64,000 nt of DNA from Thermoanaerobaculia bacterium (GTDB taxonomy: Bacteria > Acidobacteriota > Thermoanaerobaculia > Multivoradales > SZUA-115): contig JBIOXV010000172.1 in the NCBI GenBank assembly GCA_044869805.1, positions 14,715-78,714 on the forward strand, read 5' to 3'. Positions 33,656 to 52,846 of this stretch are shown here, in pieces. Below the pieces are notes generated by a model. It made no database searches. It saw only the letters and a program-made list of their open reading frames with translations, and was not told where the DNA came from. A program made the position numbers and the translations under genes. Position 1 is the stretch's first letter; each line of letters begins with the position of its first letter.

Positions 33656-33782
33656 ACGGGCCCTCCTTCGGAAAAACGGCGGTCGATCTGGTAAGCGACG
33701 CTTGCAAGTCCTCTGCCGCCGGGTGCTAGCCTGCGCTCCTACTCATGCCCCCCTACCCATGCGTCTCGAGAAGGAGCTCCCG

Positions 33783-36232: not shown

Positions 36233-36419
36233 CCTCGCTCCGAGCCGAGTGGGTCCCGTTTGTACCACGGCCGCCTGCCGGCACACGGGCTGTCCCGGCG
36301 ACGGTGGCAGCCGGCACTCTTAGGACAGGTAATCTTCCGCCATTTTCGCCGGGATCGGCGGGCATCGCCGGCTTGCGATCGCCCGGGCGCCCCGACGAGC
36401 TTAAGTCAAGGAGGCCGTG

Positions 36420-38057
36420 ATGAGCTCAGTCCCGAACGGAGCCCGCCTCGCTGTGGCCCTCGCGCTCGTCGGAGCGCTGCCGGCCGTCCCCGCCCTCGCG
36501 GCGTCGCCCGACCATCCCGAGGTCAGCTTCGCCGTGCGGCACGACGTCTCACCGCCGCTCGCCCAGCAGCCGATCCGCCGCCCGCGGGCCGGCCAGCCCG
36601 ATCGGCAGATCCCCCTGCGCGTGCCGCTGGACTTGGCGGCCCGGTATCACCCCACCCCGCCCGCCGCGGACCCGCTGCTCGCGGTGAGCGAGACCTTCGC
36701 GGTCGCCACACCCTCTCCGATCCTCACTTTCGAGGGCCTGTCGGACGACGACAACGCCGCCGTCACCGGCGGCCGGATCGTGCCGCCGGACACCCAGGGC
36801 GACGTGGGCCTCACCCAGTACCTCCAGGCGATCAACCTGATCCTCGCCGTCTACAACAAGGCGACCGGGGCCCGCACCTTCGGCCCGGTGACGGTCGCCT
36901 CGCTGTGGGCCGGCTTCGGGGGCGAATGCGAAACCAACAACGACGGCGATCCCATCGTGCTGTACGACGACGCGGCCGACCGTTGGCTGGTGAGCCAGTT
37001 CGCGATCGCCGCCGACGGCCACCAGTGCATCGCCATCTCCACCACCAACAACCCCGCCGGCTCCTATTTCCGCTACGACTTCGTGGTCAGCCCCGACGCC
37101 TTCAACGACTATCCCAAGCTCGGCGTCTGGCCGGACGGCTACTACATGAGCGCCAACGAGTTCGAGACCAACTTCACCGGCGCCATCGCGGTGGCCTTCG
37201 AGCGCAGCAGGATGCTGCTCGGCCAGCCCGCTCAGATGGTGAAGTTCGGGCCTCTCGCCTGTGGCAGCGAGTGCTTCTTTTCCCTCCAGCCCTCTCACTT
37301 CGAGGGCGGCACGGCGCCGCCGGCCGGCGCGCCCAACACCTTCGTGATGGCCTTCGACGACGAAACCTGGGGAACCGGCTCCAACCCGGACGGCTACCGG
37401 ATCTGGGACTTCACCGTCAACTGGACGAGCCCGGGCAGCTCTAGCTTCATCGTCCGTCCACAGGTCAACGCTCCCGAGTTCGACGCCAACCTGTGCAACT
37501 TCTCGCGGAACTGCATCCGCCAGCCCTCGCCAGGCGAGCGCCTGGACCCGCTGGGTCAGTTCACTATGTTCCGGGCTCAGTACCGAAACTTCGGCACCAG
37601 CGAGCGGATCGTCCTCAACCACACGGTGGACGTGGGCAGCAACCGCGCCGGGGTGCGCTGGACCGAGCTGCGCGACAACGGCAGCGGCTGGGTGCTGCAC
37701 CAGACCGGGACCGTCGCACCCGGCTCCGATTCACGCTGGGTGGGCTCGATCGCCATGGACGGTGACGGCAACATCGCGCTCGGCTACAGCGTCTCGAGCC
37801 AGACCGTCAGGCCCTCGATCCGCTACGCCACGCGCTCGGCGGGAGACCCCTTGGGCACCATGGGCGCGGAGGTGACGCTGCAGGCCGGGGCGGGCGTACA
37901 GCGCCAGTCCTTCAACCGCTGGGGCGACTACTCGACGATGAGCGTCGACCCGGCGGACGACTGCACCTTCTGGTACACGCAGGAGTACTACGCCAACAAC
38001 GGCAGCTTCGACTTCAAGACGCGGATCGGCTCGTTCAAGGTGCCGGGCTGTAGCTGA
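36420..38057 (+). CDS. Secreted hypothetical protein, possibly beta-propeller/Asp-box-like
   Basis: A strong Shine-Dalgarno (AAGGAGG) sits 8 nt upstream and a signal peptide is present. The 545-aa ORF has native codon usage. Asp-box-like segments are visible (SIAMDGDGN; WGDYSTMS). I recognised no confident family. Confidence 0.55.
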   Translation: MSSVPNGARLAVALALVGALPAVPALAASPDHPEVSFAVRHDVSPPLAQQPIRRPRAGQPDRQIPLRVPLDLAARYHPTPPAADPLLAVSETFAVATPSPILTFEGLSDDDNAAVTGGRIVPPDTQGDVGLTQYLQAINLILAVYNKATGARTFGPVTVASLWAGFGGECETNNDGDPIVLYDDAADRWLVSQFAIAADGHQCIAISTTNNPAGSYFRYDFVVSPDAFNDYPKLGVWPDGYYMSANEFETNFTGAIAVAFERSRMLLGQPAQMVKFGPLACGSECFFSLQPSHFEGGTAPPAGAPNTFVMAFDDETWGTGSNPDGYRIWDFTVNWTSPGSSSFIVRPQVNAPEFDANLCNFSRNCIRQPSPGERLDPLGQFTMFRAQYRNFGTSERIVLNHTVDVGSNRAGVRWTELRDNGSGWVLHQTGTVAPGSDSRWVGSIAMDGDGNIALGYSVSSQTVRPSIRYATRSAGDPLGTMGAEVTLQAGAGVQRQSFNRWGDYSTMSVDPADDCTFWYTQEYYANNGSFDFKTRIGSFKVPGCS

Positions 38058-39471
38058 GCCCGGCCGATTCCAGCTTCGCCGCCTCCTCCCGCACCACCTG
38101 GTCCGCGGTCAGGCTGGTGCGGGAACTCTTGATGACCGAGAGCTGGTCCAGTAGCCAGGGCGCCGGATCGGCGCCCGTGGCGCGGGCCGTCCTGGCGACG
38201 GCCGCGGCCGCGGCCTTGAGGCAGTTCCTGGGCTCGATGCGATCGAGCTCGTCCCAGAACCAGCCGCAGGAAGAGAACATGCGGTGCCTGAGGCGCTGCG
38301 CCTCGAGGAGATCGCCCAGGCGCGTGACCTCGATGCGCTTGAGCGCGCGCTTCGCAAAGGCGGCCGCCAGCTTGGGCAAGGTCCGCCGGCCGAGTGCCAA
38401 GTCGATCGCGGCCAGCAACAGGCCGTGCGGGTCGTCCACCAGCTCGCCGGCGGCCTGCTGGTAGGCGCGATCGAGATCGACCGCCAAGGCGTTGAGCGCG
38501 GCGCGCAGCGGCGCCTTCCAGTGCGCCTGCGGGGTGCAGTGGCAGAGGTCGCTCCAGCGCGCCACGCCATGGTGACAGCTCCAGGAGCTGGGCTCGACCA
38601 CCTCCATCGACTGGCGCGGCGGGTGCGCGTCGAGGAAGCGGGCGAGGTTGGTGACCTCGAAGCCAGCACGCGACGCGGAGCTCCTCAGCAGGCGGCGCAG
38701 GAAGAGCTGGCGGTCCTTCTGATGGTGGCCGTAGAGCTCGCCGTCGGTGGCGATGAGCAGCAGCCGGTCCTCGCCCTCGGGCTCGAGCCGGGCGCCCAGG
38801 GGCTTGAGCTGCTCGCGGGCGAAGCGGTCGGCGTTGGTGGTGGCGCTGGGGTCGAAGGAGATGCGGCCCGAGAGGCTGCGCACGAAGAAGAAGGCGGCGA
38901 GGCGCCGGCCCTGGGGAAGCTCCACCCAGTAGGGCCGCGTGGGGTCGAGGGTCTGGGTCTTCGCCTGCCAGGGGGCGAGGACCGTGAATTCGATCCCTTG
39001 CTCGGCCGCCACCGCCAGCGTCTCGCGGTCGGCCGCCGTCTCCGGCAGCCACAGGCCGCGGGGCTTCCGACCGAAGCGCCGCTCGAAGTCGGCAACTCCC
39101 CAGGCGATCTCGAGCTCCTTCTCGGCCCGGGTGGCGAGCGGCAGGATGGTGTGGTGGTAGCTCTGGGCGAGCGCTCCGCCGGTGCCCGAGCGGCCGGCTC
39201 CAGATCGCCGGGCGCTCGCCTTGTCGGCGGCGACGATCTTCTTGTGCACGGCGGGGGCCGCGCGCGCCATCCAGGCGAGCAGAGTGGGGCCGAAGTCGAA
39301 GGACAGCAGCTCGTAGTTGCCGGCCTCGGCGTTCGGCCGGTAGCACTCGGCGGTGATCTTCTCGTTGAAGTTGGGATAGGGATCGGCGCCGGGCTCTTCC
39401 GGGATCTCGCCGCTCGCCGGGTCGTCGCGCGGAGGTTGGTAGAAGTGGCCGTGGACGGCGAGGAAGGTCAC
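38035..39471 (-). CDS. Glycoside hydrolase family 57-like protein with a DUF3536 C-terminal region
   Basis: The N-terminus (V)TFLAVHGHFYQPPRDDPASGEI...NFNEKITAECYRPNAEA is characteristic of GH57/DUF3536 proteins. A GTG start at 39469-39471 is inferred. The remaining 673 aa of the 1151-aa track ORF upstream are spurious. Confidence 0.8.
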   Translation of the reverse strand: MTFLAVHGHFYQPPRDDPASGEIPEEPGADPYPNFNEKITAECYRPNAEAGNYELLSFDFGPTLLAWMARAAPAVHKKIVAADKASARRSGAGRSGTGGALAQSYHHTILPLATRAEKELEIAWGVADFERRFGRKPRGLWLPETAADRETLAVAAEQGIEFTVLAPWQAKTQTLDPTRPYWVELPQGRRLAAFFFVRSLSGRISFDPSATTNADRFAREQLKPLGARLEPEGEDRLLLIATDGELYGHHQKDRQLFLRRLLRSSASRAGFEVTNLARFLDAHPPRQSMEVVEPSSWSCHHGVARWSDLCHCTPQAHWKAPLRAALNALAVDLDRAYQQAAGELVDDPHGLLLAAIDLALGRRTLPKLAAAFAKRALKRIEVTRLGDLLEAQRLRHRMFSSCGWFWDELDRIEPRNCLKAAAAAVARTARATGADPAPWLLDQLSVIKSSRTSLTADQVVREEAAKLESAGLSYSPAP

Positions 39472-40688
39472 GCCGCCCGTACCTTGACTCGCTCCCCCAC
39501 CAGCTCGAGCAGGCGCTTGAGCTCGTCGTAATCCGGGTAGCGCAGCCGCACCCAGGCGTTGGCCATGTAGCCCGCCTCCACCGGCTGGGTACGCGAGCCC
39601 ACCGGTGGAAAGTGATAGTCGATGATCCACTCCGCGAGCTCGTGCTCCATCTCCTCGACGCCCTCGTAGGCGACGATCCGCCCGTCGCGGTCCGGCCGCA
39701 GGTTGACGATGCCGGCCGAGAAGCGCCGGCTGGGCACCTGGGTGGTGTGGCCGTGGACGATCGCCGCCGCCCACTCGCGGTAGACGTCCATCTCGTTGGC
39801 GGCGCAGTAGAGGTCCCAGGCGCCCACCCCCGGCGGCCGGCAGCCGATCTCCGAGAACTTGAGGCCCTTGTTGCCGAAGAACCACTCCATGTGGGTGGCC
39901 GAGGTGCCGATCGAGAGCGCCGCGATCACCTGCGTCCCCAGCCGCTTGACCTCGTCGTACCCTGAAGAGTCGATGCGGTTGGTGGCGATGAACATCGGCG
40001 AGACGTGGCGCTCGCGCATCGCGGTCAGCACCCGCGGGTAGTAGTGGGTGATGAACTCGTGGCCTACCTCGCCGCCGGCGGTGATGGTGTCGTAGAAGCC
40101 CTCGTGCCCGTCGATGAACTCCTCGACGGCGACCGAGGCGCCGCGCTCGAAGCCCTGCTCGGCAATCGCCGCCTCGAGCTCGCGCGCGTCGTCGGCGCGC
40201 GTGGTGCCGGCGGCGCCGGCGCCGCTCCTCGGCTTCAAGATCACGGGGAAGCCGACGCGCGCCGCGAAGTCGCGCACCTCCGCGGCCGAGGAAGCCGCCG
40301 CCGACTGCGCGCAGGGGATGCCCTGCTCGCGCAGGAACTCCTTCATCGCCGGCTTGTCGCGGCAGAGGTAGGTGGTCTGGACCGAGGTGCCGGGGATGCC
40401 GCAGGCCTCGCGCACATGCGCCGCGGTCATCACGTGCGCCTCGATGGTGGCTTCGAGGCGATCCACCCAGCCGCGCCGCTGCACGTTGCGCACCGCCTCG
40501 AGCAGGGACTCCTCGTGTACCACCGAGGAGACCTCCTCGTAGTCGTGCAGCATTCGCCTGAGATCGGACGGCAGGGCCGAGGCCGGCACCTCGCCGATCG
40601 CCGTCACCTTGGCCCCCACCTCGGCCAGGCCGCGCACGAACTTGCGCTGGTTGAAGGGGAAGGCGGGCTCCACGAAGACCACGTGCAT
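39468..40688 (-). CDS. ATP-grasp domain ligase (paralog 1 of 3)
   Basis: MHVVFVEPAFPF is the N-terminus. A central ATP-grasp fold (VILKPRSGAGAAG, HMEWFF, EIGCRPPG) is present. Its stop overlaps the GH57 GTG start (GTGA). Confidence 0.75.
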   Translation of the reverse strand: MHVVFVEPAFPFNQRKFVRGLAEVGAKVTAIGEVPASALPSDLRRMLHDYEEVSSVVHEESLLEAVRNVQRRGWVDRLEATIEAHVMTAAHVREACGIPGTSVQTTYLCRDKPAMKEFLREQGIPCAQSAAASSAAEVRDFAARVGFPVILKPRSGAGAAGTTRADDARELEAAIAEQGFERGASVAVEEFIDGHEGFYDTITAGGEVGHEFITHYYPRVLTAMRERHVSPMFIATNRIDSSGYDEVKRLGTQVIAALSIGTSATHMEWFFGNKGLKFSEIGCRPPGVGAWDLYCAANEMDVYREWAAAIVHGHTTQVPSRRFSAGIVNLRPDRDGRIVAYEGVEEMEHELAEWIIDYHFPPVGSRTQPVEAGYMANAWVRLRYPDYDELKRLLELVGERVKVRAA

Positions 40689-40731
40689 GCGGGTTCTCCA
40701 AAGCCGGGAACGCGGGGATAATACACCGCCT

Positions 40732-41682
40732 ATGGCGAGGGCTATCGTTCTTCTGGGGCCGCAGCGGCTGCAGCCGACGCTGGTATCGGTGTGCGACGAG
40801 ATGGGCCTTCGGGGTCCCATCGCGGCGGTCACCGCCGGCTGGCAGGAGCGCGAGGCCGAGGTCGAGGAGATGCGGGCGCATCTCAATCGCCCGGTGGTCA
40901 ACCTGATGCTCCACGAGCGGGGCGAGAAGCTCTTCGCCGCCGATCCCAGGCTGGCCGAGAAGTACCGCGAGCGGCAGGACCGCCTGCGCGACCTGCAAGC
41001 GCTCTACCGCCTGCGCCTGGCCCACGCCCTGGCCGCGGCGCGCGAGGTGATGAGCCGCGCCGCCGCTTCGCTTCCCGGGGGCTCGGAGCTGTTCGAGCCC
41101 GAGGTCGAGGCGGCGATCGACGCCGTGCGCGACCTGGACGCGCACCACCTGGCGCGCGTGCGCGAGGTGCACGCGCGCTTCGAGGCCGAGGCGAGGCCCC
41201 TCGAGCGGCCCGCCCTGCTGCGCCACCGGCACGAGCTCGGCCGCCTGCTCGCCGGCTCCACGGCGCTCGCCATCGCCGGCGGCCACGTCGCCGTGCTGCT
41301 CAACCGGCTGCGCCTCTTCGGGGTGCTGGAGCTCGCCGGCGCGCGGCCGATCATCGCCTGGTCGGCCGGCGCCATGGTGCTCGGCGACCGCGTCGTCCTG
41401 TTCCACGACAACCCGCCGCAGGGCGCCGGCAACGCCGAGCTGCTGGAGGCCGGGCTGGGGCTGTTCGCCGACCTGCTGCCCCTGCCGCACGCCGGCAAGC
41501 GCCTAGAGCTCGACGACACCCTGCGCGTCTCGCTCTTCGCCCGTCGCTTCGCCCCCGCCGCCTGCGTGGCCTTGGATCCCCTGGCCCGCGTCTCGCGCCG
41601 CGAGGCCGGCGGCTGGCGGCCGGGCCCCGGCACCCAGGTACTGACCGCCAAGGGAGCCCTGCGGAAGGCCGCTTCGCTATGA
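40732..41682 (+). CDS. Peptidase S51-like protein (peptidase E/cyanophycinase family; class I glutamine-amidotransferase-like fold)
   Basis: RPIIAWSAGAMVLGDRVVLFHD resembles the GxSAG nucleophile region of S51 peptidases, and the protein is about 316 aa. The family call comes from motif recognition only. Confidence 0.5.
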   Translation: MARAIVLLGPQRLQPTLVSVCDEMGLRGPIAAVTAGWQEREAEVEEMRAHLNRPVVNLMLHERGEKLFAADPRLAEKYRERQDRLRDLQALYRLRLAHALAAAREVMSRAAASLPGGSELFEPEVEAAIDAVRDLDAHHLARVREVHARFEAEARPLERPALLRHRHELGRLLAGSTALAIAGGHVAVLLNRLRLFGVLELAGARPIIAWSAGAMVLGDRVVLFHDNPPQGAGNAELLEAGLGLFADLLPLPHAGKRLELDDTLRVSLFARRFAPAACVALDPLARVSRREAGGWRPGPGTQVLTAKGALRKAASL

Positions 41683-42815
41683 GCCTGGCGATCCACGAGC
41701 TGCAGCGCAAGAAGCGCATCACCACCAAGGCGGTCGACGACTTCCTGGCCAAGAACGCCTTCCCGCTGGTCGAGGGGCCGAGCGTGACCTTCGTCTATCG
41801 CGGCAAGGCGGACGCCGTGCTGCTCCAGCACTTCATCTACGGGCTGCCCACCTCGCGGCCCTTCAAGCGCATCGACGGCGCCGACCTCTGGTACCTGGTG
41901 ATGGAGCTCCCCGCCAACTCGCGGGTGGAGTACAAGCTGAACGTGGTGAACGGCAAGGATCACCACTGGATCCGCGATCCTTTAAACCCGGTCACCGCCC
42001 GCGACCCGTTCGGCGCCAACTCGGTGGTTCACTCCGCGGGGCACGTGCAGCCGGATTGGACGCTCTTCGACCCGGAGGCCCGCCCCGGCACGATCGAGGA
42101 GCGCGAGATCAAGAGCGAGGCCTTCAAGCGTACCCACGGCTACCGGCTCTACCTGCCGGCACGCTTCAGGACTACCCGGCGCTACCCGCTCCTCGTCCTC
42201 CACGACGGCGACGACTACCTGCGCTTCGCCTCCCTCCAGACGGTGCTCGACAACCTGATCCACCGCATGGAGGTGGCGCCGATCATCGTCGCGCTGATCT
42301 CTTCGCGCGAGCGCCTGACCGAGTACGCGGACGACCCGCGCCACGCGCGCTTCGTGGCCGAGGAGCTGCTGCCCCAGCTCGACCGTACCCTGCCCCTGGA
42401 GCCCTCCCCGGCGGCCCGCGGCCTCGCCGGAGCGAGCTTCGGCGCCGTGGCGTCGCTGGCCACCGCCTGGCGCTACTCCGGGCGCTTCGGCAGGCTGCTC
42501 CTGCAGTCGGGCTCCTTCGCCTTCACCGACATCGGCCACCACAAGCGGGGCCCGGCCTTCGACCCGGTGGTCAAGTTCGTCAACGCCTTCCGCGATCAGC
42601 CGGGGCGGCCGACGGAGAAGGTCTTCGTCTCCTGCGGCACCTACGAGTCGCTGATCTACGAGAACCGCTCGCTCGTCCCGCTGCTGCAGGCCACCGGCAT
42701 GGAGGTCCGCTACGTGGAGGCGCGCGACGGCCACAACTGGGAGAACTGGCGCGACCGCCTGCGCGAGGGCCTCTCGTGGCTGTTCCCCGGGCCACTGTGG
42801 ATGGTGTATGAGTAG
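41679..42815 (+). CDS. Esterase-family alpha/beta hydrolase (PF00756-like) with an N-terminal Ig-like/CBM48-like domain
   Basis: The N-terminal beta domain (VTFVYRGKADAVLLQHF...WYLVMELPANSRVEYKLNV) resembles the enterochelin-esterase N-domain and CBM48. The catalytic region LAGASFGA is present. Its ATG overlaps the preceding stop (ATGA). Confidence 0.7.
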   Translation: MSLAIHELQRKKRITTKAVDDFLAKNAFPLVEGPSVTFVYRGKADAVLLQHFIYGLPTSRPFKRIDGADLWYLVMELPANSRVEYKLNVVNGKDHHWIRDPLNPVTARDPFGANSVVHSAGHVQPDWTLFDPEARPGTIEEREIKSEAFKRTHGYRLYLPARFRTTRRYPLLVLHDGDDYLRFASLQTVLDNLIHRMEVAPIIVALISSRERLTEYADDPRHARFVAEELLPQLDRTLPLEPSPAARGLAGASFGAVASLATAWRYSGRFGRLLLQSGSFAFTDIGHHKRGPAFDPVVKFVNAFRDQPGRPTEKVFVSCGTYESLIYENRSLVPLLQATGMEVRYVEARDGHNWENWRDRLREGLSWLFPGPLWMVYE

Positions 42816-42840
42816 ACCACCTACCGACGAAAGGTAAACC

Positions 42841-44112: not shown

Positions 44113-44167
44113 GTCGACCTTTCCAAGCTCGCCCGCCTTCGCACTCTGCGACTGGAGACACTTGCCT

Positions 44168-47167
44168 ATGGCCTCTCGCCGCCTGATCTGCCTCGCCTTC
44201 GCTTTCATGGCCGCCGCGGCTCGCGGTGACGACGACCTCGACGCGCGCCTCGCCGAGATCGCCGCCTGCCAGCTCGACACCGCCAAGGCGGTCACCGTCC
44301 GCGGCCTCGCGCTCAACACCGGCATGGCCACCCTCAAGGTGGACACCGGCACCTTCTTCCCCGCCAGCCCGGTGGCCGGCCGGGTGACGGAAGCGGTCTT
44401 CCTGGGCAAGGCGCGGCTGGTGCTCGATCCCCCCGACGAGATCGAGCGCGCGCAGCTCGAGATCTTCACCGGCCGGACGCGCCTCGAGGTGGAGATCTCC
44501 GAGGCCGCTTTCGTGCTCGCCAGTGACCGGGCCGCGGAAGCGGTGTTCAAGCGCTCGCCGGCCGCGGTCGAGCCGGCCCTCGCCAGCCGGGCGACGGAGC
44601 TCTTCGCCACCTGGAAGGCGAGCCCGGAGCGCAAGCAGCTCGACGTCGACGGCGCCATCCTCGCCGACAGCCTCGGCGACGCCTTCGCCCAGGGCTACTT
44701 CGCCGGCTGGTTCCAGAGCGCGGAGCTGGGCAAGTTCCTCTACCTGGTCGAGCCGAGCTCCGTCGAGCAGGTGACGCTCGGGCAGTTCGTGCCCATCGAC
44801 CTCACCAAGAAAGAGAAACGCAAGGCGGCCAAGCTGATCCACCGCGAGCAGCGGCGGGGGCGGCTGATCGGCATCGAGGTCGAGGACCTGGGGCAGTGGG
44901 ATACCTGGGTCTCGGCCTCGCTCCGCGGCGCCGCGGCCGGGCCCACGCCCGGCGATCCCGGCTTCGAGCCCGAGCGCTACGTGGTCGATCTCTCGCTCGC
45001 CGACCGCGACCTCGCGGTCAGCGGCCGGGCGCAGATCCAGCTCCGGGCCACGCTCGGCATCACCCGCATCGTGCACCTCGCCGTCCACTCCGAGCTCGAA
45101 GTGACGAAGGTGCTGGGCGAAGGCGGGGAGGCGCTGCCCTTCCGCCAGACCGGCGGCGAGGTGATGGTCGTGCTGCCGCGGGCGCCGGCGGCGGGAGAGA
45201 CCGCCGTCGTCGAGGCCCACTTCGACGGGGAGCTGCTGGAGAAGGTCGAGGGCGGCGTCTTCCTCCTCGCCGAGACCGTGAACTGGCACCCCCACGCCGG
45301 CGACGTCGACCGTGCCACCTACGACGTGACCTTCCACTGGCCGGGGCGCCTCGAGCTGCTGGCCGGCGGCAAGCGGGTGGGCGGCGGCGCGGAGAAGAGC
45401 GGCCGGCAATGGGAGCGGCGGTCGATCGAGCTGCCGGCCGCGGGGCTCGGCTTCGAGGTCGGCAAGTTCCATCTCACGACCCGCCAGGCCGGGCACGTGG
45501 CGATCCGGCTGGGGATGATGCCTTTCGCCGGCGAGGGCCGCAAAGGAATCGAGGAACGCATCCTCGATGCCGCCAGCCGGTCCCTCACCTACTTCGAGGA
45601 GGCCTTCGGTCCCTACCCGCTCGACGAGCTGATCCTAGTGCTGACCCCGCGCCTCTACTCGCAGGCCCTGCTCGGTTTCGTCACCCTGTCGGCGGTGATG
45701 ATGGCCGAAGACAGCCTCTTGGTCTGGCTGATCGGCCTCGAGGACCCGCGCACGGTGATCGCCCACGAGGTCGCGCACCAGTGGTGGGGCCACCAGGTGG
45801 GCTGGCTGGGCTACCGCGACCAGTGGCTGTCCGAGGCGATGGCCAACTACGCGGCGGTGCTCTTCGCGCGGAACGAGCTCGGCGGCGAGCTGCGCTACGC
45901 CCGCGGCCCCACCTCCGACTGGCAGGCGGCGCTGCTCGAGGAGACCGCGGACGGCCGGCCCATCGAGTCGCTGGGGCCGCTGGTGCTCGGGGCGCGGCTC
46001 TCCTCGAGCCGCGGCGGCGACGCCTATAGCTCGATCGTCTACCGCAAGGGGGCGGTAGTGCTCGACATGCTCGCCCGCCGCTTCGGCGAGCAGGCCTTCC
46101 TCGGCATGCTCAAGAAGACCGCCGAGGTCGCCGCCCACCGCGCCATCTCGACCGAGATCTTCCTCGACGCGCTGGAGCGGCAGTCCGGGGTCGAGCTCGA
46201 CGGCTTCGCCGGCCAGTTCATCTACGGCACCGGCCTGCCGGAGGTGTACTACGACTACACCTTCGCCCAGGCGGAGGGCGGCAAGTGGAAGGTGACCGGC
46301 ACCGCCCGCCAGAGCGCCCCTTACCGCTTCCGGTACCGCGTGGTGGAGAGCGCCGGCGGCTTCGACGTGGGGCGCGAGCGGATCGACCTGGCGCGGGTCG
46401 CCGACTCGGCGCTGATCGTGCCGGTGCAGATCGCGCTGTACGACCCGACGAAGCAGGAGGAGAAGAAGGCGAAGCGCAGCGAGGCGCGCGCGATCGGCAA
46501 CAGTCTGCTCTCGGGCCACATCCTGCTCCGGGGCGAGTCGACGCCCCTCTCCTTCGAGCTCGACCACGAGCCCAAGGAGGTCTGGCTCGACCGCCGGGAG
46601 GAGGTGTTCGGCCGCTTCTTCAACCAGCGTCGGCATCCGAAGCGCATGCTCCTGTACCAGGCGATCGACCTCGCGGCCGCCGGCCGCCGCGAGGAGGCGC
46701 TGGCGCTCGCCGCCCAGGCCCTCGCCGCCGAGACCTTCTCCGGCCCCCGTTACGAGGACTCTCCCGGGCCCGAGGACCTCGAGGCCGAGGCGCAGTCGCT
46801 CGACGGCCAGGTGCACCTCCTGCTCGGCCGCCTCCACCTCGACGCCGGCCGCGACGCCGAGGCGCGCTCGGCGCTGGGCGCGGCGAGAGACCTCCTCGAG
46901 CCCGGCAAGCACCCGTGGCGGAAGGGGGAGATCGACCTGCTGGACGCCCGCCTGGCGCTGCACGAGAAGGACTTCGAGCGCGCCTACCGCCTGCTGCGCA
47001 AGGGGGTGGTCAAGCAGGGCACCATCGAGGGCGCCGAGGGCTCGCTGCTGCTGGCGATCGCGGCCCGCGCCACCGGCCACACCGAGGAAGCGAAGCAGGC
47101 GATCGAGGACGCCAAGCAAGGAGGCGCCGAGGTGGGGGCGCTCACCGCGGCGGCCAAGCCCCGCTGA
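44168..47167 (+). CDS. Secreted M1-family zinc metallopeptidase (aminopeptidase-N-like) with a C-terminal TPR region
   Basis: A signal peptide is followed by the M1 signatures IAHEVAHQWWGHQVGW and downstream LSEAMANY. The C-terminal roughly 250 aa carry TPR-like repeats. Confidence 0.8.
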   Translation: MASRRLICLAFAFMAAAARGDDDLDARLAEIAACQLDTAKAVTVRGLALNTGMATLKVDTGTFFPASPVAGRVTEAVFLGKARLVLDPPDEIERAQLEIFTGRTRLEVEISEAAFVLASDRAAEAVFKRSPAAVEPALASRATELFATWKASPERKQLDVDGAILADSLGDAFAQGYFAGWFQSAELGKFLYLVEPSSVEQVTLGQFVPIDLTKKEKRKAAKLIHREQRRGRLIGIEVEDLGQWDTWVSASLRGAAAGPTPGDPGFEPERYVVDLSLADRDLAVSGRAQIQLRATLGITRIVHLAVHSELEVTKVLGEGGEALPFRQTGGEVMVVLPRAPAAGETAVVEAHFDGELLEKVEGGVFLLAETVNWHPHAGDVDRATYDVTFHWPGRLELLAGGKRVGGGAEKSGRQWERRSIELPAAGLGFEVGKFHLTTRQAGHVAIRLGMMPFAGEGRKGIEERILDAASRSLTYFEEAFGPYPLDELILVLTPRLYSQALLGFVTLSAVMMAEDSLLVWLIGLEDPRTVIAHEVAHQWWGHQVGWLGYRDQWLSEAMANYAAVLFARNELGGELRYARGPTSDWQAALLEETADGRPIESLGPLVLGARLSSSRGGDAYSSIVYRKGAVVLDMLARRFGEQAFLGMLKKTAEVAAHRAISTEIFLDALERQSGVELDGFAGQFIYGTGLPEVYYDYTFAQAEGGKWKVTGTARQSAPYRFRYRVVESAGGFDVGRERIDLARVADSALIVPVQIALYDPTKQEEKKAKRSEARAIGNSLLSGHILLRGESTPLSFELDHEPKEVWLDRREEVFGRFFNQRRHPKRMLLYQAIDLAAAGRREEALALAAQALAAETFSGPRYEDSPGPEDLEAEAQSLDGQVHLLLGRLHLDAGRDAEARSALGAARDLLEPGKHPWRKGEIDLLDARLALHEKDFERAYRLLRKGVVKQGTIEGAEGSLLLAIAARATGHTEEAKQAIEDAKQGGAEVGALTAAAKPR

Positions 47168-47177
47168 CCGCCGGCCG

Positions 47178-47489
47178 TTACTCGGTCATCCGGCTGCGCC
47201 GGGCCCGATTCTCCAGCATCTCCAGGAACCACGCCTCGGGGGTCGCCACGTCGCGCCAGCGGTAGATCAGCATCGCCACCACGTCGGCGAGGATCACGGC
47301 GGCGGTGTCGGGGTGCACGCCGTAGCGCTGAAACATCTCGATGATGCGCGGCTCGAGGCGCGCGACCAGGGCCTGGATCTCCTTCCACTGACCCGGCTCG
47401 CCGTCCTCTCCGCCGCCGTCATCACCGTCCGACATGGCTTCATTATCTACGCGGTCAAGACCGGCCCCCAGGATACGCGGCCGGCGCAC
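47178..47489 (-). CDS. Small hypothetical protein with an acidic N-terminus, downstream of glgA
   Basis: A 103-aa ORF (or 85 aa from MSDGDDGG). It lies 39 bp downstream of glgA on the same strand. No family was recognised. Confidence 0.3.
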   Translation of the reverse strand: MRRPRILGAGLDRVDNEAMSDGDDGGGEDGEPGQWKEIQALVARLEPRIIEMFQRYGVHPDTAAVILADVVAMLIYRWRDVATPEAWFLEMLENRARRSRMTE

Positions 47490-47528
47490 GCCGGGATTAC
47501 CGCCCGGCGTAACGCGCCCGGGGCGAGA

Positions 47529-49043
47529 TCAGAAGTGCCCCGCCAGGAGCGCCTCGTACAGTGCCACGTAGCGCTCGATCTGCGACTCCCAGGAGAAGTC
47601 CCGGCTCATGCCGGCGAGCATCAATCGCCGCCAGGCCTCGCGATCCTGGTAGAGGTCGAGCGCCTGGTTCACGGCCCACGCCAGGCCCTCGGGCGTGAAG
47701 TGCTCGAATACGAAGCCGGTGCCACTGCCGTCCCCGGGGTCGAAGGGCTCCACCGTGTCGGCGAGGCCGCCGGTCTTGCGCACCACGGGCGGCGTGCCGT
47801 AGCGCTGGCTGTACATCTGGTTCAAGCCGCAGGGCTCGTAGAGCGAGGGCATGAGGAAGATATCGGCGCCCGCCTCGATCAGATGGGCCAGCGGCTCGCT
47901 GTAACCGCGGTAGAAGACCACGCGGTCGGGGAAGCCGTGCTGCAGCCCGGCGAAGAACTCCTCGTACTTGCGCTCGCCGTTGCCGAGCACCACCAGGCGG
48001 GCGTTGCGTCGCGCCAGCAGGCCCGGCAGGACCTCGAAGAACAGGTCGAAGCCCTTCTGCGCGGTGAGGCGCGACACCACGCCCAAGAGTGGCACCCGCT
48101 CCTCGGCGGCCGAGCCGGGAGCGGCGAGCCCCAGGGAGGCCAGCCCCAGAGAAGCTAGCAAATCGGCCTTGTTGGCGGCCTTGCCGGAGAGGTCGGCCGC
48201 CGAGTAGGGGTGGGGGATGTGGGGGTCGTTCGCCGGGTCCCACTCCTCGGCGTCGATGCCGTTGACGATCCCCACCAGGTGGTCGCCGCGCGCCCGCAGC
48301 ACGCCCTGGAGCCCCATGCCGTAGCGGTCGGTCTGGATCTCCAGGGCGTGGGTGCGCGACACGGTGGTGATGACCCCGGCATAGAGCAGGCCGGTCTTCA
48401 AGAAGTTGATCCGCCCGGCCGCGAGGTCGTCCTGGTAGAGGTAGGAGGCGACCCCCGCGAGCCCCAGCTCGGGCAGCAGGCCGCTGCCGAACACTCCCTG
48501 GTAGCCCACGTTGTGCAGCGTGAGCACGGTCTTGGTGCCGGCGAACAGGCGGTCCCAGGCGTAGACGGTGCGCAGGTAGAGGGGCATCAAGGCGGTGTGC
48601 CAGTCGTGCGCGTGCACGATGTCCGGTGCCCAGCCCATGCGCTGGCAGCACTCGAGCGCCGCCCGCGACAGGAAGGCGAAGCGCAGCGCCTCGTCCGCGT
48701 CCTGCGTGTAGTAGCCCTCGCGGTCGTAGAGCGCCGGGCAGTGGATGAAGTAGAGCGGCGGCCCGCCGCCGTGGGTGCCGACGCCCGGCAGCGGCGCCGT
48801 GTAGGCGGAGAAGGAGAGGTGGCGGTCGCCCACCGAGATCGGCACGTCGCGCAGGAAGGCGACCGGGAAAAACGAGTGCTGCGAGCGATCGATCTTCGAG
48901 TACAGCGGCAGGAAGGCGCGCACGTCGTGCCCGGCGCGGTCGAGGTAGCGGGCGAGCGAGGCGGCGACATCGCCCAGGCCGCCGGTCTTGGCGAACGGGG
49001 TGAGCTCGGAGCTCGCCTGGCAGATGCGCAGCGGCCGGTCCAC
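47529..49043 (-). CDS. glgA: Glycogen (starch) synthase, ADP-glucose type (GT5)
   Basis: SSELTPFAKTGGLGDV and C-terminal GT-B motifs (LMPSLYEPCGLNQMY) identify it. A GTG start at 49041-49043 is inferred. The upstream 668 aa of the 1172-aa track ORF are a spurious extension. Confidence 0.85.
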   Translation of the reverse strand: MDRPLRICQASSELTPFAKTGGLGDVAASLARYLDRAGHDVRAFLPLYSKIDRSQHSFFPVAFLRDVPISVGDRHLSFSAYTAPLPGVGTHGGGPPLYFIHCPALYDREGYYTQDADEALRFAFLSRAALECCQRMGWAPDIVHAHDWHTALMPLYLRTVYAWDRLFAGTKTVLTLHNVGYQGVFGSGLLPELGLAGVASYLYQDDLAAGRINFLKTGLLYAGVITTVSRTHALEIQTDRYGMGLQGVLRARGDHLVGIVNGIDAEEWDPANDPHIPHPYSAADLSGKAANKADLLASLGLASLGLAAPGSAAEERVPLLGVVSRLTAQKGFDLFFEVLPGLLARRNARLVVLGNGERKYEEFFAGLQHGFPDRVVFYRGYSEPLAHLIEAGADIFLMPSLYEPCGLNQMYSQRYGTPPVVRKTGGLADTVEPFDPGDGSGTGFVFEHFTPEGLAWAVNQALDLYQDREAWRRLMLAGMSRDFSWESQIERYVALYEALLAGHF

Positions 49044-50308
49044 TAGACCTCCGTGCCGTCCGGCACCACCGCCCCGGCCGCCACCACGATGATGCCGTCG
49101 CGGATGCACCAGTTGTCGCCGTCGGCGTGGGTCACGCCGCCCGCGTTGACCAGCTTGACGCCGTTGCCGATGCGCACGTCGCGGTCGAGGATGGCGTGCT
49201 TGATCACGCAGTCGCGGCCGATACCGAGCGGGATGTTGCTGCCCGCCGCCTCGTCGGGCTCGAAGAAGTTGGCGCCCATCACCACGCTGTCCTCGACCAC
49301 CGAGCCGGAGCGGATCACCGAGCGCACCCCGAAGATCGAGCGCTGGATCTCGGCGCCGGTGATGATCGAGCCGTCGCACAGCACCGAGTGGTAGACCCGG
49401 CACTCGTTCACCTTCACCCCGGGCAGGAAGCGCGGGTGGGTGAAGATCGGGTAGTCGGGGCTGTAGAGGTTGAGCGGCGGCACCGGCACCGCGAGCTCCA
49501 GGTTCGAGCTGTGGAAGTTGCCGATGGTGCCGATGTCGCGCCAGTAGCCGTCGTAGCCGAAGGCGTAGATCTTCCGCTCGTGGATCGCCTTGGGGATGAT
49601 CTCTTTGCCGAAGTCGTGGTCGTCGGTGCCCACCAGCAGGTCGCGCAGCAGGCCGGGGCGGAAGACGTAGATGCCCATGCTGGCGAGGAGCGCGTCCTCC
49701 TCGGTTTCGAAGCCGAGCTTCTTCAGCGTGGCGGCGTCGGTAATCAGGCGGTCGAGGACCTCCTTCTCGGTCGGCTTCTCCACGAACTCGATGATGCGGC
49801 CGGCGGAGTTGACGCGCATGATCCCCAGGCCTTTGGCCTGTGACCGGGGCACCGCCTTGACCGCCACCGTCATGTCCGCCTTCTTCTGCCGATGGGTGTC
49901 GACGAAGTTCCTCATCTCCATCAGGTAGAGCTGGTCGCCGGACAGCACCAGCACCTCGGAAGGCTGCAGCAGGAGCAGCCGGTCCAGGTTCTGGCGCACG
50001 GCGTCGGCCGTGCCCTGGTACCAGTCGCGGCGCTCGAGGCCCTGCTCGGCGGCCAGGATGTTGACGAAGCCGCGCGAGAAGACGTCGAAGCGATAGGTCT
50101 GCGCGATGTGCTGGTGCAGGCTCGCCGAGTTGAACTGGGTCAAGACGAAGATGCGGGTGATGCCGGCGTGCAGGGAGTTCGAGATCGGCACGTCGATCAG
50201 CCGAAACTTGCCCCCCACCGGCACCGCCGGCTTGGCCCGGCTCTTGGTGAGCGGCCACAGGCGCGCTCCCTGCCCACCCCCCAGGATCGCGGTGACGACG
50301 TTCCTCAT
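49043..50308 (-). CDS. glgC: Glucose-1-phosphate adenylyltransferase
   Basis: ILGGGQGARLWPLT, KPAVPVGGKFRLIDVPISN and the left-handed beta-helix C-terminus match GlgC. The TAG stop overlaps the glgA start by 1 nt. Confidence 0.9.
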   Translation of the reverse strand: MRNVVTAILGGGQGARLWPLTKSRAKPAVPVGGKFRLIDVPISNSLHAGITRIFVLTQFNSASLHQHIAQTYRFDVFSRGFVNILAAEQGLERRDWYQGTADAVRQNLDRLLLLQPSEVLVLSGDQLYLMEMRNFVDTHRQKKADMTVAVKAVPRSQAKGLGIMRVNSAGRIIEFVEKPTEKEVLDRLITDAATLKKLGFETEEDALLASMGIYVFRPGLLRDLLVGTDDHDFGKEIIPKAIHERKIYAFGYDGYWRDIGTIGNFHSSNLELAVPVPPLNLYSPDYPIFTHPRFLPGVKVNECRVYHSVLCDGSIITGAEIQRSIFGVRSVIRSGSVVEDSVVMGANFFEPDEAAGSNIPLGIGRDCVIKHAILDRDVRIGNGVKLVNAGGVTHADGDNWCIRDGIIVVAAGAVVPDGTEV

Positions 50309-50397
50309 CGGCGCCCCTCTCTTGAAGCCAAGCCTCTGAGGTGGCAGATCTTACTCGCACTCGCCCGCCCGGCCCAAGGCCGCTATACTCCCCGCCC

Positions 50398-51618
50398 GTG
50401 CCGCACGTCGTCTTCGTAGCGCCGTTCCTGATGCCGGCCACGGCGCGCTTCGCGCAGGCCACGGCGAGCCTGCCGGGGGTCAAGGTCGGGCTCATCACCC
50501 AGGACCCGGCGGCCAAGATCCCGCCTTCGCTCGCCGCCTCGATCGCCGCCCACCGGCGGGTGGAGAACGCTTTCGACCCGGTGCGCTTGGCCGATGCGGC
50601 CCGCGACCTCGCGCGCTCGATCGGCGGCCTCGACCGGCTGATGGGGGCCCTGGAGCAGCTCCAGGTGCCGCTCGCCCAGGCGCGCGAGATCCTGGGGGTC
50701 GAGGGCATGCGGGTAGAGGCGGCGAAGAACTTCCGCGACAAGGCGCGCATGAAGACCGTGCTGCGGGAGGCCGGCCTGCCCTGCGCCCGCCACCGGCTGG
50801 CGGCTTCCGCCGAGGAGGCGCGCGACTTCGCGCGCGAGGTCGGCCTGCCGCTGGTGGTCAAGCCCCCGGACGGCGCGGGCGCCAAGGCCACCTTCAGGGT
50901 GGGCACGCCCGAGGCGCTGGAGGAGGCCTTGAAGGTCAACGCGCCGGCGCCCGGCCGCCCGGTGCTGCTCGAGGAGTTCGTCACCGGCGACGAGTACTCT
51001 TTCGAGACCGTTTCGATCGCCGGCCGGCCGGTGTGGTACTCCTCCACCCGCTACCTGCCGACGCCGCTCGAGGCGATGCACAACCCATGGATTCAGTGGT
51101 GCGTGCTGCTGCCTCGGGAGCGCGAGGACCCGCGCTTCGACGACGTCAAGGAAGTGGCTTTCAAGGGGCTCGCGGCGCTGGGCATGGGCACCGGCCTCTC
51201 GCACATGGAGTGGTTTCGGCGCCGCGACGGCTCGCTCGCCATCTCCGAGGTCGCCGCCCGCCCTCCGGGCGCGCAGATCACCACCCTGGTTTCGGTGGCG
51301 CACGAGTTCGACTTCCTCGCCGCCTGGGCACGCCTCATGGTGTTCAGCGAGTTCCATCCGCCGCCGCGCAAGTGGGCCTCCGGCGCCGCCTTCTTCCGCG
51401 GCATGGGCGGGAGCCGCGTCAAGGCCGTGCACGGCCTCGACCAGGCGCAGAAGGAGCTGGGGCCGCTGGTGGTCGAGGCCAAGCTGCCCAAGCCCGGCGC
51501 CCCCAAGTCCGACAGCTACGAGGGCGACGGCTACGCCGTGCTGCGCCACGAGAGCACCGAGACGGTACGGAAGGCGCTGATGCGGCTGGTGGCGCTGGTG
51601 CGCGTCGAATACAACTGA
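50398..51618 (+). CDS. ATP-grasp domain ligase (paralog 2 of 3)
   Basis: (V)PHVVFVAPFLMP, LVVKPPDGAGAKA, HMEWF and EVAARPPG are present. A GTG start at 50398 is chosen by alignment to its paralogs; an alternative ATG lies at 50341. Confidence 0.7.
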   Translation: MPHVVFVAPFLMPATARFAQATASLPGVKVGLITQDPAAKIPPSLAASIAAHRRVENAFDPVRLADAARDLARSIGGLDRLMGALEQLQVPLAQAREILGVEGMRVEAAKNFRDKARMKTVLREAGLPCARHRLAASAEEARDFAREVGLPLVVKPPDGAGAKATFRVGTPEALEEALKVNAPAPGRPVLLEEFVTGDEYSFETVSIAGRPVWYSSTRYLPTPLEAMHNPWIQWCVLLPREREDPRFDDVKEVAFKGLAALGMGTGLSHMEWFRRRDGSLAISEVAARPPGAQITTLVSVAHEFDFLAAWARLMVFSEFHPPPRKWASGAAFFRGMGGSRVKAVHGLDQAQKELGPLVVEAKLPKPGAPKSDSYEGDGYAVLRHESTETVRKALMRLVALVRVEYN

Positions 51619-51628
51619 GATCCCGTCG

Positions 51629-52846
51629 ATGAACGTGGTGATGATCGCTCCGGCCTACCCGTGGGAGATGACCCTCTTCACCCGCGGGCTGGCGCGGGTG
51701 GGCGCCAAGGTGCTCGGCGTGGGGGACACGCCGGCCGCGGGGCTGTCGCCGATGGTGAAGGAGAGCCTCGCCGCCTACCTGCACGTGCCCTCGCTGTGGG
51801 ACGAGGAGGCAGTGATCGAGGCCGTGCGCCGGCACCCGGCGGCGCGCTCGCTCGACCTCGTGGAATGCCTGTGGGAGCCGGGCATGATCCTCGCCGCCCG
51901 GCTGCGCGAGCGGCTGGGCCTGCCCGGCATGACGGTCGCCGAAACCGTTCCCTTCCGCGACAAGGGGCGAATGAAACAGGTGCTCGACGCCGCCGGCATC
52001 CGCACTCCGCGTCACTTCCGCGCCGCGTCGACCCGCGAGGTGCGCGCCGCGGCCGAACGCATCGGCTTCCCGCTGATCGTCAAGCCGATCGCCGGCGCCG
52101 GCTCCAAGGACACCCATCGGGTCGACGACGACGCGGAGCTCGAGCAGGTCATCGCCAAGGTCCGGCACGTCGAGGAGGTGAGCGTCGAGGAGTACATCGA
52201 GGGCGAGGAGCACACTTTCGACACCATCTGTGCCGACGGCGAGATCCGCTATTTCAACCTCGCCTGGTACCGGCCGCGGCCGCTGCTGCAGCGCACCGTC
52301 GAGTGGATCAGCCCGATGACCGTCACCCTGCGGGACGTGTTCCGCGACGACCTCGCACCGGGCCGAGAGATGGGCCAGGCGGTGCTCGAGGCCCTGGGAT
52401 TCAAGACCGGCTTCACCCACATGGAGTGGTTCCTGAAGCCTGACGGCGAGGCGGTGTTCGGCGAGATCGGCGCCCGCCCGCCCGGCGCGCGCTCGACCGA
52501 GCTGATGAACTACGGCTGCGACATCGACGTCTTCACCGGCTGGGCCGAGGCGGTGTGCCACCGGCGATTCAGCCAGAAGGTGGTGCGCCGCTACAACAGC
52601 GCCGTGATCTTCAAGCGCGCCCAGGGCCAGGGCCGCATCCAGCGCATCGAGGGCCTGGAGCGCCTGCTCGGCCGCTTCGGCGAGGCGATCGTCTCCGTCG
52701 ATCTCCTGCCGATCGGCTCGCCGCGCCGCAACTGGCTCCAGACCCTGCTCTCCGACGGCCACGTCATCCTCCGCCACCCGCACCTACCGACCTGCATCGA
52801 GATGGCGGACACGGTGGCCGAGGAGCTGCAGCTCTACGCTGCCTAG
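51629..52846 (+). CDS. ATP-grasp domain ligase (paralog 3 of 3)
   Basis: MNVVMIAPAYPW, LIVKPIAGAGSKD, HMEWF and EIGARPPG are present. It follows paralog 2 after a 10-bp gap. Confidence 0.75.
   Translation: MNVVMIAPAYPWEMTLFTRGLARVGAKVLGVGDTPAAGLSPMVKESLAAYLHVPSLWDEEAVIEAVRRHPAARSLDLVECLWEPGMILAARLRERLGLPGMTVAETVPFRDKGRMKQVLDAAGIRTPRHFRAASTREVRAAAERIGFPLIVKPIAGAGSKDTHRVDDDAELEQVIAKVRHVEEVSVEEYIEGEEHTFDTICADGEIRYFNLAWYRPRPLLQRTVEWISPMTVTLRDVFRDDLAPGREMGQAVLEALGFKTGFTHMEWFLKPDGEAVFGEIGARPPGARSTELMNYGCDIDVFTGWAEAVCHRRFSQKVVRRYNSAVIFKRAQGQGRIQRIEGLERLLGRFGEAIVSVDLLPIGSPRRNWLQTLLSDGHVILRHPHLPTCIEMADTVAEELQLYAA

Follow-up and report, generated by a model that had tools for sequence, protein, structure and literature searches.

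Why should genes for glycogen synthesis be interleaved with genes for ATP-grasp ligases, a peptidase-like protein and an esterase? This question is raised by a 64,000-nucleotide stretch of DNA (contig JBIOXV010000172.1, hereafter referred to as the window), which stems from a 6.2-Mb metagenome-assembled genome (MAG), 94% complete, of the class Thermoanaerobaculia (Acidobacteriota), a taxon that is also indicated by the record titles of close relatives. In the window, glgA and glgC lie among the genes for four ATP-grasp enzymes (AG1 to AG4), a protein with the fold of the S51 peptidases (S51-like) and an esterase (Est). An earlier reading, made from the sequence alone, had suggested that these genes constitute a ligase/peptidase module coupled to glucan storage, and the comparison of gene order and gene content across phyla presented here supports this suggestion.

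Conservation of the ligase and hydrolase genes across phyla

When the window proteins were mapped onto 100 loci by tblastn, AG1, the S51-like protein, Est, AG4, AG2 and AG3 were found to co-recur at 45-70% identity in Acidobacteriota, Planctomycetota, Gemmatimonadota, Dormibacterota, Eisenbacteria, Binatia, Actinomycetota and the gammaproteobacterial Steroidobacteraceae. Because of this recurrence across phyla, the arrangement goes far beyond chance, and judged by gene order, the ligase and hydrolase genes belong together in a genuine, conserved module. Whereas the six core genes of the composition listed by the sequence-only reading were upheld, the list lacked one member that is core elsewhere: a second esterase, Est2, is the usual extra member of the module outside the window's lineage and is absent from the window. 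The most compact arrangement is seen on one metagenome contig, on which AG2-AG3-S51-Est-AG4-Est2, with overlapping stops and starts, face glgA-AG1, giving a set of eight genes. A cultured carrier, Sulfidibacter corallicola M133, has S51-Est-AG4 and AG3, and in a record of Actinoplanes digitatis, AG1 and Est are found in a single misread frame. Among the recurrent neighbours of the module, there was neither an exporter, importer or regulator consistently tied to it nor a gene for siderophore synthesis or uptake.

The loci compared were collected in two ways. AG3 orthologues were sought in 41 relatives and found in 26 of these, and among one-genome-per-species contigs at least 569 stretches encode an AG3 relative, of which the best 80 loci were kept (55 of them 15 kb or longer). 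Most of the genomes are MAGs, named here by the taxon labels of their submitters. These labels are not always reliable, since locus L073 (contig C15 of genome G019), submitted as Deltaproteobacteria, was placed in the order of the window's Thermoanaerobaculia genome; the full module is present there. Clustering of the open reading frames (ORFs) at the loci was redone after masking of known genes; the first round contained shadow ORFs and read-through frames, the DNA having a GC content of 70%. The masked clustering brought out Est2 as the one additional regular member, and two of its clusters (clusters 0 and 3) turned out to be shadows of Est2.

The trees of AG1, AG2 and AG3 contain common cross-phylum pairs, such as Eisenbacteria with Binatia, Gemmatimonadota with Vicinamibacteria, and Dormibacterota with Actinomycetota. 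As the same cross-phylum subclades are found in each tree, the ligase genes appear to travel together and not along the species tree, and on this phylogenetic evidence the module as a whole is passed on, by inheritance or by transfer. Its distribution is patchy, as expected of a transferable accessory pathway: in an even sample of the phylum, AG4 was found in 8 of 201 genomes, which are too few positives for a co-occurrence test. In some lineages, further genes are added. A PF00850 (histone-deacetylase-like) amidohydrolase gene adjoins AG1 in some of them, and in Dormibacterota a GCS2 carboxylate-amine ligase gene adjoins AG4; loci with such added amide-bond enzymes are L062, L064, L120, L089, L090 (11221-12423), L122 and L123.

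Linkage to alpha-glucan synthesis

Synteny between module homologues and glg genes extends across phyla. The genes glgA and AG1 share a strand, with 3-82 bp between them, in 15 loci that represent at least five labelled phyla, and in 39 loci glgA or glgC is divergent from AG2/AG3 across 31-791 bp, as are glgC and AG2 in the window, where the intergenic gap is 89 bp. In 35 of the 80 loci, no more than 10 kb separate glgA from AG3, and glgB, glgP, malQ and GH57 genes recur beside the module. In relatives that have AG2-AG3 alone at one site, the coordinates place glgA beside AG1 or AG4 instead.

The phyletic pattern points in the same direction. GlgA is encoded in all 26 AG3-bearing genomes among the 41 relatives, and AG3 was found in none of the 11 relatives without GlgA (AG4 was found in one such genome, which is 79% complete); since the relatives are not independent samples, this co-distribution is to be read as a pattern and not as a statistical test. 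In nine further module genomes, GlgA is present in seven and GlgE in two, one from Dormibacterota and one from Actinomycetota, so that all 35 module genomes checked have a capacity for alpha-glucan synthesis (33 GlgA, 2 GlgE). Based on the synteny across phyla and on this phyletic pattern, the module is probably functionally coupled to alpha-glucan metabolism and hence to glucan storage, as the earlier reading had suspected.

The glycogen genes themselves are those of the classical GlgC-GlgA pathway, as had been assumed: both proteins pass the cut-offs of their NCBIfam models, and the K-x-G-G-L motif of GlgA is invariant. According to tblastn, the glgA and glgC genes of the window are the only copies in the genome. 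We considered that the GlgA of the module might be a special paralog; this idea was abandoned, as GlgA is the sole such protein in the source genome and in each relative, and its catalytic motifs are kept. A GH13-type GlgB was not found by tblastn in the source genome, and the GH57/DUF3536 protein encoded next to AG1 may therefore be a branching enzyme, or may have another glucan-processing role. A complex prediction for GlgA with AG1 gave a score of 0.00, which weighs neither for nor against binding. Over-long AG1 homologues (GlgA-AG1, AG1-Est and AG1 with a histidine kinase) were considered as Rosetta-stone fusions and rejected, as they contain low-complexity, frameshift-type stretches or come from a contig with 3x coverage; they therefore count as evidence of adjacency only.

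The ATP-grasp ligases

The sequence-only reading had described AG1, AG2 and AG3 as close paralogs. This description has to be given up, because the three proteins are only 32-36% identical to each other and fall, in a maximum-likelihood tree, into three old orthogroups, each with 100/100 support and a long stem; by this phylogeny they are ancient paralogs. Their Pfam matches exceed the cut-offs and place them in the ATP-grasp superfamily. Residues K152, E189/E190, H266, E268, E280, R284 and P285-P286-G287 are invariant in AG1-AG3, and the same catalytic residues are invariant within the sets of AG1 and AG3 orthologues; more generally, the catalytic residues are invariant in the aligned orthologues of the ligases and of Est. 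When AG1-AG4 were compared with the NCBIfam models of characterised families (Ddl, PurK, PurT, biotin carboxylase, CphA, RimK, LysX and BacD), the best scores were 25-85 bits against cut-offs of 143-1027. As all scores are far under the cut-offs, the four enzymes lie outside the characterised families with an unrelated role. AG1 orthologues are 61-69% identical across phyla and are usually encoded directly downstream of glgA. In 61 of the 80 loci, AG3 has an AG2-type gene for company, which lies directly upstream wherever inspected.

AG4 is of a different family, as had been recognised from the sequence. The nearest fold to its AlphaFold2 (AF2) model (predicted local distance difference test score, pLDDT, 80) is that of RimK (5zk6, E 5e-10), followed by Ddl, VanA and ArgX, and the model has an extra C-terminal helical domain. 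AG4 scores 25.1 bits against TIGR00768, the cut-off of which is 143.4. Its orthologues are 45-68% identical across phyla, and AG4 is the gene directly after Est in every case noted; the Dormibacterota AG4, 45-47% identical, is relocated. The family is large, with more than 7000 homologous clusters, none of which bears an informative name, and an Atlas cluster of 8601 members. In three AG4 orthologues (G004:C9:51027-52286, G007:C14:20137-21375 and G018:C52:3684-4922), one in-frame stop each, TAG or TGA, was seen, which could be a MAG sequencing error or the onset of gene decay.

The source genome has three further paralogs of the AG family outside the module (C123:16509-17723, C115:4495-5703 and C5:141920-143134). 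One, of AG1 type and 68% identical, adjoins an IMP dehydrogenase gene, another copy (52% identical) adjoins a gene for a TylF-like methyltransferase, and an AG3-type paralog (58% identical) is divergent from genes for an NMT1-type ABC transporter and an arginase-family protein. The AG3-type paralog subclade stands in for AG2-AG3 in the modules of Steroidobacteraceae and is part of AG3'-AG2-AG3 triplets in some Thermoanaerobaculia.

The S51-like protein and the esterases

The assignment of the S51-like protein to the S51 type was confirmed across orthologues and by its fold. The window protein itself, with 21.1 bits, is under the gathering cut-off of PF03575 (23.9), whereas 15 of 17 orthologues match this family (E<=0.01; best 1.4e-7), and the top 20 Foldseek matches of its AF2 model (pLDDT 87) in the PDB are all S51 proteins, namely peptidase E, cyanophycinase, pseudo-CphB and acI peptidase. 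Neither the family profile nor the single sequence gave a meaningful match to PDB sequences, and the family was settled by the fold search only. The model contains a long helical hairpin insert, and the family comprises 378 clusters at E<=1e-30. The elbow motif W-S-A-G-A-M is conserved, with the serine in 16 of 17 aligned orthologues; this residue is Ser211 of the window protein and is retained by 89% of 128 representatives of the family. Among the same representatives, His225, Asp226 and Glu236 are 89-95% conserved, and E41, D136, R257 and R272 are nearly invariant.

Est had been described as an esterase with a CBM48-like N-terminal domain. The esterase domain (PF00756) was confirmed; the N-terminal domain proved to be of a different kind. 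Enterochelin_N is found together with PF00756 in all 21 orthologues, whereas CBM_48 (PF02922) matched just two of the 21 (E ~0.02) and CBM_20 four (E ~0.01). Est thus has the two-domain layout of a Fes-like esterase, and CBM48 can no longer be invoked to argue that it binds glucan. Its score against the Fes equivalog NF007758 is 108.9 bits (cut-off 222), and the serine of the G-A-S-F-G motif and His352 are invariant among the orthologues. Est ends in a conserved C-terminal tail, F-P-G-P-L-W-M-V-Y-E, followed by the stop (window positions 42789-42815), and the tail closes in x-Y-E in 23 of 28 orthologues (loci L030-L134). In Dormibacterota, the terminal Glu is missing, the tail closing in LIYPG or in the near variants LIYP and LIYPP, and an Est paralog in the source genome stops eight residues earlier and thus has no tail. 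As the RimK/LysX-like AG4 is always the next gene, one might speculate from these alignments that the terminal Glu of Est could be a ligation site.

Est2 is a second PF00756 esterase of about 250-290 amino acids (aa), encoded directly after AG4 in more than 20 loci. In the window, its position is held by an M1 peptidase gene, and the sole Est2-like gene of the source genome, 35% identical, is found in an unrelated context. By inspection, no signal peptide was seen in any core protein of this cytoplasmic module.

Gene content of the window and lineage-specific neighbours

The G+C content of the window is about 70%, and the true reading frames were picked out by their third-position GC. All ten genes that had been read from the sequence were found again at the same coordinates (Table 1), both with Pfam and NCBIfam profiles, whose curated cut-offs were used for family assignment, and in a public, independently made gene call of the window DNA, the boundaries of which are identical for the module genes. 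The malQ-like gene that had been placed farther downstream was also recovered. The metagenome runs that contain the window DNA come from soil, cave and sediment; all are DNA runs, and an RNA run is not listed among them.

Table 1. Genes of the module and of glucan metabolism in the window, with positions counted from the first nucleotide of the window
Feature	Position	Strand	Evidence
GH57 + DUF3536 glucan enzyme, 478 aa	38035-39471	-	PF03065, PF12055
AG1, L-amino-acid-ligase-like ATP-grasp enzyme, core	39468-40688	-	PF02222, 42.9 bits; weak LAL_C2
S51-like protein (peptidase E / cyanophycinase fold), core	40732-41682	+	AF2 fold; PF03575 in orthologues
Est, Fes-like two-domain serine esterase, core	41679-42815	+	PF00756, 83.6 bits; Enterochelin_N
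AG4, RimK/Ddl/ArgX-like ATP-grasp enzyme, core	42841-44112	+	Predicted fold; no Pfam match
M1 metallopeptidase, TPR tail, signal-like N-terminus, non-core	44168-47167	+	PF01433
Small ORF, 103 aa, downstream of glgA	47178-47489	-	tblastn in family relatives; no Pfam match
GlgA, ADP-glucose glycogen synthase (GT5)	47529-49031	-	TIGR02095, 514.8 bits (cut-off 328)
GlgC, glucose-1-phosphate adenylyltransferase	49043-50308	-	NF002772, 537.3 bits (cut-off 537)
AG2, L-amino-acid-ligase-like ATP-grasp enzyme, core	50398-51618	+	PF02222, 46.1 bits
AG3, L-amino-acid-ligase-like ATP-grasp enzyme, core	51629-52846	+	PF13535, 36.5 bits; PF02655, 32.9 bits; ATPgrasp_N
MalQ-like 4-alpha-glucanotransferase	61309-62901	+	tblastn, 43% identity to PF02446 protein of locus L119 (match ~61378-62874)

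Two of the genes in the table had been counted as parts of the module and are better regarded as accessories, because they are confined to the window's family or rare elsewhere. For the secreted M1 aminopeptidase with a TPR tail, the family and the signal-like N-terminus were confirmed, and it is the only one of these proteins that appears secreted; its membership of the core was not, as it is found in relatives of the window's family f1 (76% identity in G001, 46% in G003), with weak matches of 24-27% elsewhere. The coupling of the GH57 gene to an ATP-grasp gene is real, the GH57 start overlapping the AG1 stop by 4 bp (GTGA). This gene is present in the genus-mate G001 and, elsewhere, was found at one Gemmatimonadota locus only (42% identity). 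The 103-aa ORF also occurs in the window's family only (83% identity in G001, 41-44% in G003 and G007) and has two weak paralogs in the genome. Many predicted secreted or Zn-dependent peptidases (DUF2268, M64 and M1-TPR) are encoded in the flanks at 32903-38057 and 44168-47167, and of two large flank proteins without a Pfam match (35114-36286 and 36417-38057), the second has two paralogs in the genome. The flank peptidases and these two proteins lie outside the conserved module.

Discussion

Bacterial glycogen metabolism is regarded as well mapped, with GlgC, GlgA, GlgB, GlgP, GlgX, MalQ and the GlgE route. Here, we describe a set of ligase and hydrolase genes that recurs beside glycogen genes, and each component of which resembles a known family. 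Cyanophycin metabolism (CphA1 and the S51 enzymes CphB/CphE) is similar in that it, too, combines an ATP-grasp ligase with a hydrolase of S51 fold, its genes for synthesis and breakdown are clustered, and its role lies in storage. However, the module has neither a CphA-type multidomain enzyme nor a Mur-ligase domain, and its ATP-grasp enzymes score 38-43 bits where the CphA cut-off is 850. Further differences are the four separate ligases and two esterases, the long helical insert in the S51-like protein, whose canonical His is poorly conserved, and the linkage to glgA, for which no precedent is known among cph genes. L-amino-acid ligases (LALs; BL00235, 3vot; RizA-type, 4wd3; BacD/YwfE) are the best PDB sequence matches of AG3 (E 2e-20, for 3vot, to 1e-8), and the weak LAL_C2 match of AG1 (18.6 bits, cut-off 29.4) together with ATPgrasp_N on AG3 suggests, but does not establish, the three-part layout of LALs. 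These PDB matches are weak even at best, no equivalog model was matched, and known LALs are encoded in antibiotic or dipeptide clusters, not in a glycogen-linked module that extends across phyla. AG4 and its neighbour Est, with its conserved C-terminal Glu, are reminiscent of RimK and of LysX/ArgX-LysW; in contrast to these, AG4 remains far under the RimK cut-off, has an additional domain and is not accompanied by an S6 or LysW-like partner. Est shares the domain layout and the conserved catalytic Ser and His with Fes/IroD, but scores at about half of the Fes cut-off, is not surrounded by recurrent siderophore genes and has its own C-terminal tail. Modification of storage glucans as such is known from starch, which is phosphorylated by GWD/PWD and dephosphorylated by SEX4, and from the acylated methylglucose lipopolysaccharide of mycobacteria. 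In the starch cycle, as in what we propose below, the alpha-glucan is decorated by an enzyme that consumes ATP, and the group is taken off again by a hydrolase; in the mycobacterial case, the genes for the modifying enzymes cluster with those for a GlgA-like transferase and a GH57 enzyme. However, the module has neither enzyme families nor chemistry in common with these cycles and is devoid of a dikinase, phosphatase, methyltransferase or acyl-CoA transferase. Our search of the full-text literature for a connection between ATP-grasp enzymes and glgA, glgC or glycogen clusters, the coverage of which did not extend to the 2009 amidoligase survey by Iyer et al., yielded no such paper, in agreement with the earlier reading, to which no characterised system of such composition was known. 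No known system combines these components or ties them to glycogen genes. Their recurrence beside glycogen synthesis genes in about ten further phyla suggests a pathway linked to glycogen storage that has not yet been described.

What could such a pathway do? Our tentative proposal, possible though well short of probable, is that amino acids or short peptides are ester-bound to glycogen by the ATP-grasp ligases and removed by the esterases and the S51-fold peptidase. The operon-level joining of the module to glgA, or to the GH57 gene in the window, suggests that it acts in glucan metabolism itself, and thus, under this proposal, on glycogen. ATP-grasp enzymes activate carboxylates and glycogen has none, and the glucan would therefore have to be the nucleophile. 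To this end, the ligases would activate the carboxylates of amino acids as acyl-phosphates, and one ligase would esterify a glucose hydroxyl of the growing glucan, by an ester chemistry like that of VanA or graspetide ligases. Ester formation by ATP-grasp enzymes is known from VanA and the microviridin ligases. The other ligases could lengthen the attached residue into a short peptide, which might contain Asp, given the S51 partner. Removal would fall to the two esterases, which would cut the decoration off the glucan, and breakdown of the freed peptide to the S51-like enzyme. The PF00756 family includes carbohydrate esterases (CE1) as well as mycolyltransferases that act on sugar esters. Such a cycle could tune the solubility or turnover of glycogen, or make glycogen a joint store of carbon and nitrogen.

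Several observations weigh against this proposal. A carbohydrate-binding module was not recognisable in any module protein, the N-terminal domain of Est being of Fes type and not the CBM48 that had been expected, and the closest characterised relatives of AG1-AG3 ligate free amino acids. The module of Dormibacterota and Actinomycetota lies apart from glucan genes. The histidine of the S51-like protein at cyanophycinase-like spacing, His253, is present in only 61% of the 128 representatives, and going by this conservation the protein may not necessarily be a textbook S51 peptidase. To our knowledge, aminoacylated glycogen has never been reported. A 2026 review on the solubility of alpha-polyglucans does not mention acyl or aminoacyl modification, and the accessible part of a 2024 review on prokaryotic alpha-glucan enzymes does not mention ATP-grasp enzymes, esterases or peptidases. 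Lastly, the distribution of cyanophycin synthetase (TIGR02068) would be explained no less well by a nitrogen reserve that stands alone: it is encoded in 1 of 26 module-bearing and in 6 of 15 module-less relatives, these seven being G013, G019, G023, G027, G030, G032 and G039.

The main rival is accordingly a free cytoplasmic, cyanophycin-like peptide or poly-amino-acid reserve, built by the four ligases, degraded by the S51-like protein and the esterases, and merely co-regulated with glycogen via shared or divergent promoters. According to the PDB titles, enzymes of the S51 fold have been characterised with cyanophycin and Asp-X dipeptides as substrates, genes for synthesis and hydrolysis are found in one operon as in cphA/cphB, and an AG3 paralog adjoins the arginase-family and ABC transporter genes. 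The cphA pattern hints at a functional replacement, and no match to TIGR02068 was found in the source genome at E<=1e-50. However, this pattern is based on approximately four lineages of related genomes and may reflect functional complementarity or phylogeny alone, and cphA and the module coexist in G019 and in G047, which is the one cphA-bearing genome among four module-bearing genomes elsewhere in the phylum. Moreover, the glgA-AG1 operon linkage across phyla exceeds what co-regulation would need, two ester hydrolases are left unexplained by an all-amide polymer, and the ligases are remote from CphA, as described above. We regard a free reserve as slightly less likely than our proposal; both a separate peptide reserve and a modified glucan have some comparative support. 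A small soluble peptide or depsipeptide, for instance a compatible solute or a dry-soil stress metabolite whose pool is balanced against glycogen as carbon and energy buffer, would suit the nearness of AG1-AG3 to ligases that make di- and oligopeptides, the origin of the DNA from soil, cave and sediment metagenomes, and the GCS2 ligase or PF00850 deacetylase that is added in some lineages. It would also suit Est, since Fes enzymes cleave small seryl esters. This explanation seems rather unlikely to us, as four ligases conserved at 60-70% identity across phyla are unusual for a secondary metabolite, transport and regulatory genes are not consistently linked to the module, and its restriction to glucan-making genomes and the operon link to glgA would have no explanation.

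Two further explanations deserve mention. The module could serve protein modification, with AG4, for example, adding residues to the C-terminal Glu of Est or to a granule protein and the hydrolases reversing this. The nearest folds to AG4, RimK and the ArgX/LysX type, belong to enzymes that act on a protein C-terminal Glu, AG4 is encoded next to Est with its Tyr-Glu tail, and this tail is missing from the Est paralog; moreover, in Dormibacterota the loss of the terminal Glu goes along with a relocated and divergent AG4. Yet this would account for just one of four ligases, the C-termini of GlgA are not conserved, and the Est tail could be purely structural; we consider protein modification improbable. 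Finally, there might be no functional link at all, the ligase and hydrolase genes hitch-hiking beside glg genes on a horizontally spreading island. The departure of the AG trees from the species tree, the movement of the module as a unit and its separation from glucan genes in some phyla could be accommodated in this way. Against this stand the gene order beside glgA, which is kept in at least five phyla while other neighbours change, the lack of any glgA in the genome other than the adjacent one, the absence of AG3 from GlgA-less relatives and the operon-like intergenic gaps, so that we consider mere hitch-hiking very improbable.

Taken together, a set of seven to eight genes, conserved as strongly as core metabolism, has been found beside the genes for glycogen synthesis, joined to glgA in about ten phyla, which implies a gap in what is understood of the storage physiology of abundant, mostly uncultured soil lineages such as the Acidobacteriota, Gemmatimonadota, Dormibacterota and Planctomycetota. 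With this, four large families of hypothetical proteins, of which that of AG4 alone accounts for the thousands of clusters mentioned above, gain a context that can be tested. If our proposal of an aminoacylated or peptidylated glycogen were true, polyglucan would be a regulated reserve of both carbon and nitrogen in many soil and sediment bacteria, and its decoration would be a modification of a storage polymer unknown in any organism.

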